From Octopus vulgaris (lineage: Eukaryota), in NCBI GenBank assembly GCA_951406725.2, contig OX597831.1:67084001-67148000 (forward strand): a stretch of DNA of 64,000 bases, given 5' to 3'. Below, in pieces: positions 3 to 46,751 of the stretch. Both the position numbers and the translations under genes were made by a program. Numbering within the stretch: position 1 is the first letter of the stretch; each line of letters begins with the position of its first letter. The notes under the pieces are model-generated. The model made no database searches, was not told where the DNA came from, and saw only the letters and a list, made by a program, of their open reading frames with translations.

Positions 3-1136
3 CAGCAGTCTGAACTGTGGCACTGTTCTTACTGCGCTGAAAGCTTTCCTGATGAACTGACACTTCAGCAGCACATGCATAGTGCGCATAATGCTACAAC
101 CTTGCAACCTCCTGCTGATGAGACCTCTGTGCAACGAAGTTCAACACCATTGAGGTGCAGTGAGTGCGGTAAAGATTTTTCGCAGAGTTCTCAATTAGAA
201 GAACATTTCTCTGCATGTCATCAGCCTGCCAGCAAAAAGATTACTTCATCTCCCAGTAATCCTGTTAACACATTGACCCAAAAGTCACCTTTCACGTGTG
301 TCTATTGCGGGAAGGCGTTCAGTCATCGCACTTCTCTCCAGCGCCACATTCGCATCCACACGGGTGACAACCTGTACAAATGCACTCAGTGCAGCAAATC
401 GTTCTGTCAGAAGTCCTCCTACGAGTATCACATTACCATTCACTCGGGAATCAAACCTTATGTGTGTGTCACGTGTGGTAAAGGATTTGCACATCAGTAC
501 GGGTTGCATCGTCATGTACGTACACATGCTGCAGAGGTCGCGGCTGAGGATGCCTCTAACAACTTGAACGTTTTAGTTAAAAAAGAAGACGAGGATGAGG
601 AGGATGACGACGATGACGACGATGATGATGACGACGATGATGATGACAATGATGATGATGACGATGATGAGGACGATGACGATGATAATGATGATGATGA
701 CGACAAAAATAATGGCAATAATAATGATAGCAATAAAAATAACAATATCCAGATGGATACGTTGCAAATGTCAAAATCTGCTTTAATTTCAAATCCTTCC
801 CAAACTGTGTCTAATGGGTCAAAGATAGGTCCTTTGGCGCATCCACCTCACCCATCACACTCCTCACACAGGCATTTACCTATTCATCTTAATCAGTCAC
901 AACAGCAACAACATTCTCAACAAAAACAGCCCTGTTTAAACTCACAGCAAGCACTCCATCATCAGCAGCAGCATCATCACCATCATCAACAACAATCACA
1001 AATTCAGCATCAACATCAACAACAACAACAACAGCAGCAGCAGCAAGTAACTGGACAACAACAGAATTATGACAATGTTGATTTTAACCTTTGTTTGGCT
1101 ACAAATATTTCTATCAACTCCACTTCTACAAGCTGA
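3..1136 (+). CDS. C2H2 zinc-finger protein, 3' part (frame open from the window edge). Five fingers followed by poly-D, N-rich and Q/H-rich low-complexity regions.
   Basis: The frame upstream of the ATG at 75 reads QQSELWHCSYCAESFPDELTLQQHMHSAH (finger 1). Then CSECGKDF..L..H...H and three tandem fingers with HTGDNLY/HSGIKPY linkers. Stop TGA at 1134-1136. Confidence 0.93.
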   Translation, partial: QQSELWHCSYCAESFPDELTLQQHMHSAHNATTLQPPADETSVQRSSTPLRCSECGKDFSQSSQLEEHFSACHQPASKKITSSPSNPVNTLTQKSPFTCVYCGKAFSHRTSLQRHIRIHTGDNLYKCTQCSKSFCQKSSYEYHITIHSGIKPYVCVTCGKGFAHQYGLHRHVRTHAAEVAAEDASNNLNVLVKKEDEDEEDDDDDDDDDDDDDDDNDDDDDDEDDDDDNDDDDDKNNGNNNDSNKNNNIQMDTLQMSKSALISNPSQTVSNGSKIGPLAHPPHPSHSSHRHLPIHLNQSQQQQHSQQKQPCLNSQQALHHQQQHHHHHQQQSQIQHQHQQQQQQQQQQVTGQQQNYDNVDFNLCLATNISINSTSTS

Positions 1137-22464: not shown

Positions 22465-24940
22465 AGATGTACTCGCATAGCAAGTAATTTGATCTGAGAT
22501 CGTGTGCTGAAACGAAAACAATTGCAGCGTGGGAGGTGTTTATAAGCCATTTAAGAAACACACAAAAGCCGTTCGATTCACTCCAACATTTAAGTTTAAT
22601 TTGTCAAAATATTTTCGTCGCTAAAATCCGCGACCTGTTCACTGACAAAGTCCGTGCTGCATCTAAGAAAGTAACAGTTAGTTCGTCATATATATGTATG
22701 TACGTATGTATGTGTGTATGTATGCATACATGTGTGTATGTATGTACGTATTCATGTCCGCACATACGCCTGTGTATGCATGTATGTATGTATGTATGTA
22801 TGTATATATATGTATGTGTGTGTATAAGCACGCACATACACTCTATAAAACATAAAGTTATAAACCTGTAGCGATGGATGGATGTAGAGTGACCACTCAT
22901 CACAACGCTATCAAATTTCAACTCCCTACGGCCGAGGCTAGAAAGTGAATTTATGACGCTTGCTCACAAGAACTATACCCTAAAATCTATTATCAGATTT
23001 TTATCTCTATATCACAGAACTAATGTTTTACTATTGTTCGTATGTATGTATGTATGTGCGTATGTATGTATGTATGTATGTATGTATGTATGTATGTATG
23101 TATGTATGTATGTATGTATGTATGTATGTATGTATGTATGTACATACGTACGCATGTGTGTATGTATGTATACGCGCCCGTATGCATGTGCCCATGTATG
23201 TGTGTGTGTACATGTACGTGCGTATGTACGTGTGTATGCCCATACGTAGGTATGTATGTATGTTTGTATTCATGTGCTACGTATGTATGTGAGTGTCTAG
23301 GAGAATGGGCAGATGTGTCCGTGAGAGTGTGTACATGTGTATGTGTATGTGAACGTATGTCCGTGTACTGGCATGTGTCCGTCCAAGTTGTGTACATGAC
23401 TGTTACTTAGCTGAAGGTTGTATACATATTTACATATATGTTTGTATAGACGCACACACATATATATATATGTGTGTGGGTGTGTGTTTGTTCCTCTCAT
23501 CGTCGTCTAACCGTGAATGGGTACAACGCCTAGGTGCGACTGTTCGTATCAAACAACGTCTGCTCATACCGTTGTATATAACTGCACATACGCATTGCAA
23601 CCTGTATGTAAGGACTACAGGTGAAAGGGAGAGAGAGAGAGGGGTGGTTATAGAATAGTCCTTCTGAATGGGATCTGGATGTTATTCCATTCGGACTTTC
23701 GGTTGAGAGTAGGTTTGTATTCTTGTATACAAACAGCTTCTGTGACCTGTCTCAACATTGCATCGGTGGGATGTGTAGATAGGATGTTCAACTTAAGCTC
23801 CCCTAAGGATCCCTTGTGGCAGTCTACAGCATGTTGGTAGAAGATGGAGTTTGGCTTCCTTTCAATGTAGTTGTCCAGGTGTTCTTTGAACCTATCATTG
23901 ATGCTTCTAGAGGTCTCACCTATGTATGACTCCGGGTTAGCCGCGCAAGCTCCCTCCTGGCACTTAATCTGGTATACAGTGCCCTTGGTTTTACAATTTA
24001 CGTGTGGATTTGTCGAACACACTGCACAATTACTCTGACAGGTGATTCTATCAAATGGATATGATCTGCATAATGCCGATTTGATAGTCCTACCTGTCTT
24101 TTCTACAACTTTAACTTTTAGGCCCGTAGTGCGCAGGACTTTCTTGAATGCCTTACTTAGCTCGTTCATAGGTGTGGCGTCAACGAACATCACTCCGTGA
24201 AATCTCCTGTTATCGTACCAAGTAACGTTTCTCATCTTTTTGTTGGTGTCCCTCTCTAACCTATTCCAGAACTTGTTGCGGTACAGGGGGCATATACCGT
24301 TTTCGTCGTTCCCTAGAATGCGTTCGAATCTAGCTTTCGCTCCTTTGTACACCCTGACTCTATCGTCTTGTGTGTATCCGGAACGTTGCATTCGGAATAT
24401 GTAGTGCTGGATGTGTTGTTGTCGTTCTTGTGGTTGGCATAGTGGTGATACATTCCTCATTACTCTAACTAAGTCTGCCACTAGGATGTTGAGTTTGGCA
24501 GTATCCGACACAGCTGAGTCACTACGGATTACTAGTGGATTAGCCATCGGTTTCTGATAGTGTGAGTGGAGTATACATGGTTTAATGGTACCATTAACTA
24601 TAGCGTCTTCCATCCATAGCTCAGTATCTAGGACGGGTAATCGTTTACTGGGGTGTCTAGAGGGGTAGTCTATGGTAAGTTTTATACTGCTGTGGATAGA
24701 GTCAGCTATGTGTTGTATAGATGTCATCACCTGTTCTTCACTTGGTAGAGGGCCCATAACTGTGTCTGTATTACATTTCACAACAAGGTTAATGTCGTCG
24801 ACGTAACGAGAGTACATAGCCAAGTGGATGTTACGGTTTGCTAGGCACTGTTTAAAACGCTTGTCCCACCATACCATGAAGAGGTTAGCAACGTCACCGG
24901 CGATCCCCACTCCAATAGCACCGCCTTTCGTTTGCTTATA
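22462..24940 (-). mobile_element. 5'-truncated Penelope-like retroelement Y (RT C-half, GIY-YIG, microsatellite-rich 3' UTR, HHR) inserted in (TA)n
   Basis: ORF 23648-24943 and HHR 22600-22649 lie on the same strand. Both boundaries fall in the TA tract of element X. Confidence 0.9.
22600..22649 (-). ncRNA. Minimal hammerhead ribozyme with G3-C8 covariant core
   Basis: Minus strand: tttgtca GTGAACA g gtcgc ggatttta gcgac GAAA atat TT tgacaaa. Confidence 0.75.
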
Positions 24941-24943
24941 CAT
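23648..24943 (-). CDS. PLE reverse transcriptase (5'-truncated) + Cys-rich linker + GIY-YIG endonuclease
   Basis: YKQTKGGAIG (RT motif B'), YSRYVDD, LPVLD, HYQKP. Linker CQSNCAVC..C. GTVYQIKC..C..YIGETSRSINDRFKEH...EAVCIQEYKPTLN. Uninterrupted 431 aa; the ATG is supplied by the junction. Confidence 0.95.
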   Translation of the reverse strand: MYKQTKGGAIGVGIAGDVANLFMVWWDKRFKQCLANRNIHLAMYSRYVDDINLVVKCNTDTVMGPLPSEEQVMTSIQHIADSIHSSIKLTIDYPSRHPSKRLPVLDTELWMEDAIVNGTIKPCILHSHYQKPMANPLVIRSDSAVSDTAKLNILVADLVRVMRNVSPLCQPQERQQHIQHYIFRMQRSGYTQDDRVRVYKGAKARFERILGNDENGICPLYRNKFWNRLERDTNKKMRNVTWYDNRRFHGVMFVDATPMNELSKAFKKVLRTTGLKVKVVEKTGRTIKSALCRSYPFDRITCQSNCAVCSTNPHVNCKTKGTVYQIKCQEGACAANPESYIGETSRSINDRFKEHLDNYIERKPNSIFYQHAVDCHKGSLGELKLNILSTHPTDAMLRQVTEAVCIQEYKPTLNRKSEWNNIQIPFRRTIL

Positions 24944-25353
24944 ATATATTTGCTTATATATATATATGTATATATATATGTGTGTGTATATATATGTGTG
25001 TGTAGATACGTATACATATGTGTATAGGTATAAGTGAGAATCTCCTTATTTACCTATAACTCTATCCCCCCTTTTTTATATATATATTTTTTATATATAT
25101 ATTTTTTATATATATTTTTTATTTTTTTATTTTTTTATTTTTTTATTTTTTTATTTTATTTTTATTTTTTTACTTTTTTATTTTATTTTTTTATTTTTTT
25201 ATTTATCTATTCTTTCATCTAACTTACCACTGACTCCTTGACCACTCCCCCAAGTATGATATTTTGCGCTATGCCTACCCCCAAAAAAGTCCCCCACCAC
25301 CACTCCTTTAAACCTGCCTAAATGTATAAATGCTAATACAATTCTTGTTAAAT

Positions 25354-29129: not shown

Positions 29130-30165
29130 TCATTTTCCAGTTTCATTTTAAAATTTCTTGCCATTAGAGAAAGAACTGGTTTCTAACCTAAATCCAAGGC
29201 TCTGTCATTGAAATTTCAACAACATCAACAGAGTATTTTTGTATGTATGAATTTATATGTGCAGATTTGTATGTTTTGTTTTATATACTTGCATGTCTAG
29301 ACATGCTCATATGTACTTAAAAGATAAGTGTTTGGAAAGTTTTACAAATTTTTACAGTTCCAATGATGGCTTGGATCTGTAGTCTTTGAATCAACTTTCT
29401 CCTTCCTGGTTTTGAAAAGCCTAATTTCTCAAGATTGGTACTTAGGCAGTGTGTTACATATTCCAGTGCCCCAATAATCACAGTTATAAACCTGAACTTG
29501 TAATCTGGATAGATTAACTGCAGATTTCTCAATAGTTCAGTGTAGGTATTCTCTTTTTCCCTGATCGAAGGCTTTATGTTAGCATCTACTGGGCAGCTAA
29601 TTTCCACAACTGTACACAGTTTCTCTTCTCTATCCCAAATCATTATATCAGGTCGGTTGTGCTTAAGCTTAATTGAGGTCTTCACTAGGACATTCCACCA
29701 GTATTCCTTTTTATTATGAGTGGCTACGGCCTCTACCATACTGTGGGTTCTTATTTCTTTGTCCTCAGGGTTATCCTTCCGACGGATCTCATTATACAGT
29801 GTTCTAGCTACAATATCATGTCTCATTGGCAGATAATACCATGATGACATTTTCGGGCGAGTGCTTATGATGCGGGTGATATCTTCGGCGTTAACTCCCC
29901 AAAGACTACATCGGTTATCGTATATTGCTGCTTTCCTGCGTGGCTGTCCCTTTTGTGCATCAGGTATTTGGTTGATATTTCCTGTTCGTAGATGGCAAAT
30001 GTATACCCTTCAAAGTAGAAATTAGTAATCTAGTTGTTGGTGCATAATAGACTGCTTTGATGATCCGTGTTGCTCTCATCCCAGATGGTCTTCTGCTGAT
30101 ATACGCTCATTTTTTCATCTGACGATACATTGCAGTAAAGTCATGTGACTTCTTTGGGCATGTAT
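29130..30165 (-). pseudogene. 3' fragment of an RLE-type (R4/Dong-like) non-LTR retrotransposon ending in (CATA)n
   Basis: RHDIVAR, RPDIMIWDREEKLCTVVEISCP (PD-(D/E)xK endonuclease), IIGALE and IQAIIGTVKI. The 3' UTR abuts the TATG microsatellite. Confidence 0.88.
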
Positions 30166-31682: not shown

Positions 31683-32143
31683 TGCTATTTCCTACACACC
31701 CACTTGGACATTAAAAAAATGTATTGTAAATAGACAAAGGACAGGTAAAAAATGTTACTCGGTGTACAACAAGACGGGGAACAGACACAAAAAGTCCCTA
31801 ATTCTTCGTCAGTTATCAACCAGATGTTATTATTCAGATTCAGTTTCACGTTGATATCTGATGAAGAATTAGTAACGCAGCCCGGCTTTTATTAACAGTA
31901 GATTATTTACATATATATATATATAATAAATTAATAAATAAAACATATGCATATATACATACATATATGTACGTACCTACCTCTACATGTATATATACAT
32001 GCATTTATGAGTACAGGACACCAAAAAAAAAAAAAACGTCGAACACAATGAGAAACGAAAACATAAACACAAAACCAAGGAACTAGACATTTTTCATAAA
32101 CAACGAAAAAATAGAGTACAGGACAAATAACATAAAGAAAATT

Positions 32144-32204
32144 CCCCTTCTTCAGTCGCCATGGTTTCATCTACTCTGCGTTTCGAAGGTGAAGGCGATA
32201 CGCA
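32144..32204 (-). ncRNA. Candidate non-circularly permuted hammerhead ribozyme
   Basis: Minus strand: tgcg TA tcgcc ttca ccttc GAAA cgca gagtagatgaaaccat ggcga CTGAAGA a gggg. Confidence 0.65.
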
Positions 32205-32311
32205 TCTTCAATTGAAACTTTCCTTCCCGCGAAAAGCAAATTAAATAAAATTTGAGATCTTTTTGCGGAGGGGTAAAAACAGGACAGTGACGACGGTATA
32301 TATATATTATC

Positions 32312-32972
32312 AATACACAACTATGAAAGAGAATCCACTATGTGGACACTCTTACGCTAGATATAGATCCGCAAAGGGACTCAACCACTAAGAATTGTTC
32401 TCAAGAAATAATTTGGCACACCAAGAACGTAAGCGAGCAGGACAAATGAAAAATAACGAAAATATAGATTAACCCCATACAATTGTTTCACCGTTAATAA
32501 CTTATGTAATTTTACTTACATAAATATCCTTGGATTGAATGTAACTGTGAATATAATCGGCCGAATTGCTCGGGTCTCTGACCTCGTGTTAATATACAGC
32601 GTGCAGTTCGACAAATTATATTTTATGACGTACTCCACCGATGATCCGATGATATTTATGTAAGTAAAATTACATAATTTATTAACGGTGAAACAATTGT
32701 ATGGGGTTAATCTATATTTTCGTTATTTTTCATTTGTCCTGCTCGATTACGTTCTTAGTATACTAAAATTTTTTCTTGAGAACAATTCTTAGTGGTTGAG
32801 TCCCTTTGCGGATCTATATCTAGCACAAGAGCGTCCACATAGTGGATTCTCTCTCATATTTGTGTATTAATATTTACTGAATCTCAGTCTTTTATGCGCT
32901 AAGCCACTGGTGTTTAAATTGATGTTATTAAATTAATATCCAACTTTTTCACCCTCTTTTTGACTTTAATTT

Positions 32973-33552: not shown

Positions 33553-33618
33553 AGCCTTTAATCTTCAGTCAAGAACCGGATCATCCTCGCAATTTCGGCT
33601 GATTAATCTTGAGCTTGC
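33553..33618 (-). ncRNA. Candidate non-circularly permuted hammerhead (cleavage-site U replaced by G in this copy)
   Basis: Minus strand: gcaa GC tcaaga ttaatc agcc GAAA ttgc gaggatgatccggt tcttga CTGAAGA ttaaa ggct. Confidence 0.55.
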
Positions 33619-33637
33619 TCCAATCTGGCCAGCCCCA

Positions 33638-46403: not shown

Positions 46404-46751
46404 ATGTCTTGCGAACAACTTGCACCTACAAGTTCTACCAATCAAAAACTCCGCATACCGGAAGCCAGCAAGTGTATGGGGTCATCAGGAGAGAATGCGC
46501 GCCGTTTCGGGGCCTACCTCTCGACGGCATCAATGCGCACTGATATGAGGCCCTGCTTGCTAGATCAGCTTGTTATCAAATAAAGTTCAATATCCTTCTA
46601 GCCATCGCTCATCGTCTCTTTTTAACCAAATCCAGTGGCTAGCCTTCTCCACTGCAGATTGGATATCGGTCATGGTGGTATTGACTTTACGATGAGTTAG
46701 GCCTAGCGATAACAACGGTCGTCTCACACTGTGTCCAACGAATCCTCTGAG
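46404..46751 (-). mobile_element. 5'-truncated Hero-like RLE LINE with 24-bp TSD
   Basis: RGFVGHSVRRPLLSLGL...AVEKASHWIWLKR. TSD tctgtggaatccaaagctactgag at 46380-46403 and 46752-46775. Confidence 0.82.
46474..46528 (-). ncRNA. Candidate non-circularly permuted hammerhead ribozyme with intact core, in the LINE 3' UTR
   Basis: Minus strand: gccg TC gagag gtaggcccc GAAA cggc gcgcatt ctctc CTGATGA ccccatac. Confidence 0.75.

Follow-up and report, generated by a model that had tools for sequence, protein, structure and literature searches.

A putative core-opened hammerhead ribozyme in a non-autonomous Penelope-type repeat of Octopus vulgaris

The 64-kb stretch of Octopus vulgaris DNA analysed here (the window) contains, on its minus strand at 31926-32298, the 3' end of a non-autonomous Penelope-type retroelement with thousands of related copies. 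This repeat probably carries a six-helix hammerhead, a permutant of type SGC opened between A9 and G10.1, which is predicted to cut after GUA. The original prediction had proposed a 61-nt hammerhead with its blocks in C-B-A order at 32144-32204. That order was indeed present, although it had already been published as type SGC (accessible text of PMC10085705), and the ribozyme unit is likely to be not the 61-nt motif but a fold of ~130 nt (32144-32273) whose backbone is opened between A9 and G10.1.

The window copy belongs to a repeat that we call family A. It is 5'-truncated and comprises the 3' ~370 bp of an ORF-less unit of ~860 bp, for which the natural copy L025:990-1849 was taken as the reference. 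The stretch 32279-31926 was 94.6% identical to unit positions 512-858, and the whole copy spans unit ~490-858 (32298-31926), its 5' edge having been placed by eye against other copies. It is flanked by a short TA run at the 5' junction (32299-32307) and by a (TA)n run at the fixed 3' end of the element (31911-31925), the likely insertion target. A MITE-like palindrome of nested inverted repeats (130 nt at 92% and 107 nt at 93%) lies beside it at 32308-32872. A 301-base family A query gave 3736 first-look candidates in the 2.8-Gb genome, and a 34-mer of the family had 376 exact matches. Ninety distinct copies were obtained from the first 100 of these 376 places (93 at first, three being merged by a shorter duplicate key; one palindromic locus was possibly counted twice).

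In family A the 3' end was fixed and the 5' end variable. The 3' end was followed by a TA run in 61 of the 90 copies, ran on into the start of the unit in 21 and ended otherwise in 8; the run-on tails were only 40-47 nt long in 18 copies, and exactly 47 nt in 12. An inverted piece abutted a 5' end in 16 of the 90. According to the accessible text of Craig et al. (2021, PMC8557442), Penelope-like elements (PLEs) form partial tandems and 5' inversions, carry a short tail and insert in (TA)n; these hallmarks, the microsatellite target included, were all found in family A. The repeat anatomy thus supports the proposal that the rearranged hammerhead resides in a Penelope-like, non-Hero element within (TA)n. 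The parent ORF expected on 5' extension was not there: the ORF-less unit runs into another copy of itself, its 5' end abutting the 3' end of a truncated one. No coding capacity was found in the unit, the longest internal ORF being 93 aa of low complexity, nor did it contain a Naiad-clade ORF (N-terminal GIY-YIG, CxC linker, RT).

Related subfamilies D, E and F, which came up by chance and by pattern search, were 63-86% alike across the ribozyme domain; matches numbered 983 for D, 750 for E and 3105 for F, whose reversed control gave 20. With 0.94-0.97 pairwise identity, families A and D are younger than the Naiad copies found. Head-to-tail family A units with two or more complete ribozyme motifs were found in two loci (L040 and L044), and L316:2080-4900 holds four head-to-tail subfamily D units of 838-844 bp that are 99.8% alike.

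On the minus strand, from 32204 to 32144, the segments read exactly as the original prediction had laid them out, and both the U-rich 3' region and the flanking TA repeats that it described were present. The GUA site, the GAAA core and the CUGANGA core follow one another in S-G-C order, cleavage block first, and the hammerhead core positions C3-A9, G12-A15.1 and U16.1-H17 are all there. When a descriptor was run in all six block orders across the 64-kb window, 32144-32204 was the sole C-B-A match with 5-bp stems I and III; the three other matches were in A-B-C or B-C-A order with a weakest stem of 3-4 bp, and 150 windows simulated with the same local dinucleotide composition gave no match to this descriptor. 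The proposed 5-bp helices of stems I and III were also upheld by standard pairs kept, with changing letters, across four related subfamilies. Among 119 full-length copies, evaluated with offsets fixed per subfamily, stems I (32194-32198 with the strand preceding the CUGAAGA core, 32149-32160) and III (32200-32204, with U16.1, and the strand following GAAA, 32177-32184) covaried among the subfamilies: the letters changed and the standard pairs stayed. Position 17 was A, C or U and position 7 was variable, which is the variation that hammerheads allow. Since these copies had been chosen on two core motifs, the invariance of the core is partly by construction; GAAA was likewise invariant in 40 of 40 aligned copies, all of them selected on it. 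No Rfam family reached its gathering score over the whole window, and a search of 31900-32330 at E<=10 gave no hammerhead model, only microsatellite-driven matches to miRNA models.

Stem II is where our reading departs from the original prediction, which paired GGGG with CUUC after an inserted A. This pairing is most likely wrong, and an upstream GAAGG strand (32222-32226), pairing with CCUUC (32185-32189), is preferred. The GGGG/CUUC register has two adjacent G-U pairs and a duplex energy of 0.0 kcal/mol, against -4.6 kcal/mol for GAAGG/CCUUC. A plain type SGC hammerhead with GGGG as its stem II strand, in which the upstream strand and the helix P6 described below would be alternative or inhibitory, can nevertheless point to a register that is formally pairable in 95% of cells among 40 copies of subfamilies A-F, and to the extra nucleotide between 9 and 10.1, which is usual in PLE hammerheads (PMC4209133). 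However, P6 accounts for the sole double change in that register, whose outcome is a G-U pair. The register also fails in two other families, in which the upstream strand pairs: in the Naiad-UTR family its third pair is A-G in 20 of 25 copies, and the upstream stem II forms Watson-Crick pairs in 21-24 of 25 per position; in the REL-element family CCCC follows the core, so a GGGG-type stem II cannot form, and the upstream strand pairs fully. We consider the plain type SGC reading improbable. Because the GGGG register stays pairable to that extent within family A, two folds may coexist there.

In the preferred upstream-strand model, the 5' strand of stem II lies ~25 nt upstream of the predicted cut and changes, with its partner, from GAAGG/CCUUC to GAGCA/UGCUC across subfamilies; A9 and G10.1 are on strands ~75 nt apart. 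An opening at this point is favoured by natural hammerheads in which one more nucleotide is accommodated between A9 and G10.1 (PMC3705267, PMC4209133). Read 5' to 3' on the minus strand, the domain begins with the 5' strand of P6 (CCCCU, 32269-32273), which closes the whole domain, and continues with the P5 hairpin directly 5' of G10.1 (32227-32268), the displaced 5' strand of stem II, the 5' strand of P4 (32213-32218), the 3' strand of stem III, the predicted cleavage site (32199/32198, A17 being 32199) and the 3' strand of stem I. After a 4-nt linker come the 3' strand of stem II, GAAA (G12-A15.1), the 5' strand of stem III, the 3' strand of P4 (32164-32169), the 5' strand of stem I, the CUGAAGA core (C3-A9) and finally the 3' strand of P6 (AGGGG, 32144-32148), which is the strand that had been assigned to stem II.

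In a MAFFT alignment of 40 copies, the upstream stem II was 97% paired, with compensatory changes in three of its five pairs. Taken together, stem II, P5 and P6 had 91.7% of cells paired, compared with 42-54% when the strands were slid, and both partners had changed in 79 cells, where shuffles gave 24.6; for this comparison the covariation tool cautions that sequences related to one another exceed the shuffles it makes. Within the A-F group the covariation of stem II amounts to one split between two clades (A/D/E versus F). In P6 the sequence before P5 pairs with AGGGG after CUGANGA; its inner five pairs were 90-98% paired, with one compensatory change from C-G to A-U in 12 of 40 copies, and a sixth pair failed in 26 of 40. 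The outer four pairs of P5 (-10.5 kcal/mol) were 96% paired, and in three of them both partners had changed. P4 joins the segment that follows the 5' strand of stem II to the one that precedes the 5' strand of stem I; subfamilies E and F have different letters at these places, which by eye also pair. Aligned genomic copies thus showed covariation in support of the pairings of the predicted core-opened fold. The nested minimum-energy fold of 140 nt, from a program that does not model pseudoknots, kept P6 and did not contain the core (z -1.47).

Two further pairings were tried and rejected. A stem II beginning from G8/A9, with a GAAGG overlapping the core, was 86.5% paired and broke in subfamily F, and a long closing helix of 32229-32218 with 32146-32135 was not kept in subfamilies D-F. 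A possible kink-turn between stem III and P4 has a GA-rich loop, but no one consensus register fitted all subfamilies.

The predicted cut lies after unit position 592. Of the 90 family A 5' ends, 21 fell at unit 591-615, where 4.9 were expected from the rate elsewhere (Poisson p 5e-8); in 5000 simulations a 25-nt window with as many as 21 ends arose once. The density of ends was 0.26 per 25 nt immediately past the cut, compared with 0.075-0.09 in the flanking stretches, and the excess occupied the 25 nt that follow the predicted cut, with the cut as its boundary. Upstream partial copies of family A started 3' of the cut in 20 of 22 cases, and the four-unit subfamily D array began within 3-6 nt of it. 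The pattern recurred in subfamily E, which had 5 of 30 ends in 12 nt and 1 in the next 42 nt. The pile-up was weak in subfamily F (2 of 28, with two more ends 4-5 nt upstream, after two chance matches had been dropped from 30), and was not seen in the Naiad-UTR set, where a cruder script that over-extends into microsatellites placed 1 of 20 ends at the site. We take the pile-up as indirect evidence, drawn from genomic copies, for the predicted self-cleavage.

The same ends could arise if the fold were real but not, or only weakly, catalytic. In that case the structure would recruit the reverse transcriptase (RT) as a 3' signal, and copies would end where the pseudoknot made the enzyme stall. 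Reverse transcription can be halted by strong structure, and of the 74 family A copies extending as far as the ribozyme, 55 continued through it. PLE hammerheads, moreover, cut poorly in vitro according to the accessible text of PMC4209133. A stalling enzyme, however, would be expected to stop first at the 3' strands (unit 623-647), where the rate of 5' ends was ordinary (0.075-0.08 per 25 nt), and a merely structural role sits badly with core letters and a non-G at position 17 that were kept across families while the stems turned over. Stalling is therefore in our judgement unlikely, and we infer that run-off from cleaved RNA fits the 5' ends better. The prevalence of read-through implies that most templates would be uncut, re-ligated or circular.

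The six-helix fold was found, with other letters, in 25 Naiad-UTR copies. In 6 of 30 loci, same-strand remnants of a Naiad RT (RVT_1 at E 1e-4, short of the cut-off) preceded it by 1.0-1.5 kb. The local Naiad 3' UTR was near-identical to the published excerpt of the Naiad_Ovul 3' UTR, and by eye the same fold could be recognised in Naiad_Ovul, Naiad_Esco and two further Naiad consensus excerpts. A blastn comparison of family A with the local Naiad UTRs gave no match; the architecture is common to both. Another hammerhead of the reversed topology, unrelated in sequence as the original prediction held, lies at ~46475-46555 (-), after the end of an ORF. This ORF end (46592-46750; no Pfam match) we take, from its motifs, to be REL-type, the element earlier called 'Hero'. 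The motif lies in the 3' UTR of the element, draws stem II from an upstream strand and has P6 and no P5. The sharing of so rare a wiring would favour a common origin and exchange of the motif, but family A and the Naiad UTRs showed no sequence similarity from which a tree could be built.

Mobilisation of family A by this REL-type (Hero-like) non-LTR element, instead of a Penelope-like one, would be in keeping with the same reversed, core-opened design after its ORF end and with its 2406 first-look candidates in the genome. We regard it as very improbable: the REL-type element has its own fixed 3' end, mostly without (TA)n after it, and lacks P5, whereas the tails, partial tandems and 5' inversions of family A are those of a typical PLE. 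As a separate observation, a third core-opened hammerhead occurs at ~33560-33635 (-) in an unrelated repeat family; this copy is 5'-truncated with U16.1 mutated, and a relative with other stem letters was seen in another locus (L330).

A Penelope-like mobiliser is what we propose, and the presence of the same six-helix design in Naiad 3' UTRs makes Naiad descent of the family A ribozyme likely. The Naiad copies found in the genome were decayed. No autonomous element with the ribozyme of family A was found, and none of 20 distant Naiad-like RT loci, from the 150 of 1113 RT candidates that were scored, had a core-opened ribozyme downstream; given that scope, a young Naiad lineage may be the carrier. 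In a GIY-YIG search the 30 loci examined, from 150 of 6136 candidates scored, were PLEs with a C-terminal endonuclease or a host gene. A young intact PLE does occur in the genome: a 781-aa family with C-terminal GIY-YIG (L152 and relatives, at G000:C16:20837296-20840559), which has 0.98 pairwise identity, ends at (TA)n and includes many intact frames. It has no similarity to family A beyond chance; its 3' UTR carries instead a minimal type I-like hammerhead in which U3/A8 replace C3/G8.

Other features were noted in the window. A 435-residue frame at 23651-24955 (-) resembles by eye the C-terminus of a PLE RT with a C-terminal GIY-YIG (nothing significant in Pfam), and a short hammerhead-like motif follows it near 23500. 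A 230-residue frame at 29320-30009 (-) resembles the C-terminal part of a non-LTR retrotransposon protein, and an open frame at 3-1133 (+) has C2H2 zinc-finger repeats and looks by eye like a host gene exon.

For the core-opened fold in family A we propose the following course of events. P5 would stack on stem II and P6 would hold A9 near G12, giving the usual active site, and read-through transcripts would be cut after GUA. On a nicked (TA)n target, the RT/GIY-YIG protein of an autonomous Penelope-like element would prime at the 3' end, which is TA-rich. Running off at the cut, the RT would leave truncated copies; reading through an uncut, re-ligated or circular template, it would produce partial tandems and arrays. 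With ~20 bp bridging the cut, a doubly cut monomer would tend to be re-ligated as a circle.

More tentatively, and with slightly more doubt than confidence, we suggest that a widespread, overlooked and active core-opened SGC permutant exists in animal genomes, which would be the missing ribozyme of Naiads, would have been swapped between Penelope-like and REL-type elements and would drive self-ligating circular retrozymes in thousands of copies. The fold is missed by all standard descriptors and Rfam models. If borne out, the fold would overturn the assumption, explicit in the accessible text of PMC10085705, that CUGANGA and its stem II strand are inseparable; it would extend the range of non-circularly permuted hammerheads from metatranscriptomes to animal genomes, where they would be present in high copy number; and it would explain the half cores noted in Naiad elements. 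It would also provide a test case for the role of PLE ribozymes, because the 5' ends of the copies record the cut.

In the literature covered, we found no whole domain inserted at A9/G10.1 and no such wiring; the supplements of PMC10085705 and reference 13 of PMC13725137 (hammerheads with additional helices) lie outside that scope. The accessible parts of PMC13725137, PMC10162972 and 10.64898/2026.09.16.752053 likewise contain no such wiring. The comparisons below rest on the accessible parts of the papers cited.

The C-B-A order corresponds to type SGC of Eckert et al. (2023, PMC10085705; HRIMA-1 and variants), which was validated in vitro and was reported there from metatranscriptomes only. 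As in type SGC, the cleavage block of family A comes first, followed by the GAAA block and then CUGANGA, and three stems cross one another. The linker between stems I and II is 3-5 nt in the family A group and typically 3 in type SGC, and P4 takes the place of the extra helix that joins the far ends of stems I and II in that type (the I-II interaction helix). Unlike in type SGC, the preferred 5' strand of stem II is upstream and not within 1-2 nt after CUGANGA, so that the family A fold can be described as an SGC hammerhead with its ends joined, re-opened at A9/G10.1 and supplied with P5 and P6. Cleavage has been demonstrated for type SGC and is predicted for family A.

Family A resembles the Naiad PLEs of Craig et al. 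(2021, PMC8557442) in its (TA)n targets, partial tandems, 5' inversions and short tail; Naiads, however, encode EN-RT and measure 3.4-4.4 kb, whereas family A has no ORF. Naiads lack canonical hammerheads according to that paper, and their 3' UTRs, Ovul and Esco among those listed, were flagged only as HHR_core or HHR_half_core. With the animal non-LTR retrozymes (Cervera and de la Pena 2020, PMC7229834; Li et al. 2026, 10.64898/2026.07.22.740005) family A shares a non-coding, hammerhead-bearing unit and head-to-tail repeats. Those retrozymes, with unit sizes of up to 972 bp, have been proposed to be non-autonomous PLE derivatives that move via circular RNA. They carry type I hammerheads, whereas family A has the reversed core-opened fold, occurs mostly as truncated single copies and is known from DNA. 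Finally, an upstream strand also helps to build the helix at the stem II position in the pseudoknot (pistol-like) hammerhead (Zhan et al. 2024, PMC11300833); there, however, A9, G10.1-C11.1 and G12 form a continuous stem-loop in the classical block order, whereas in family A A9 and G10.1 are separated.
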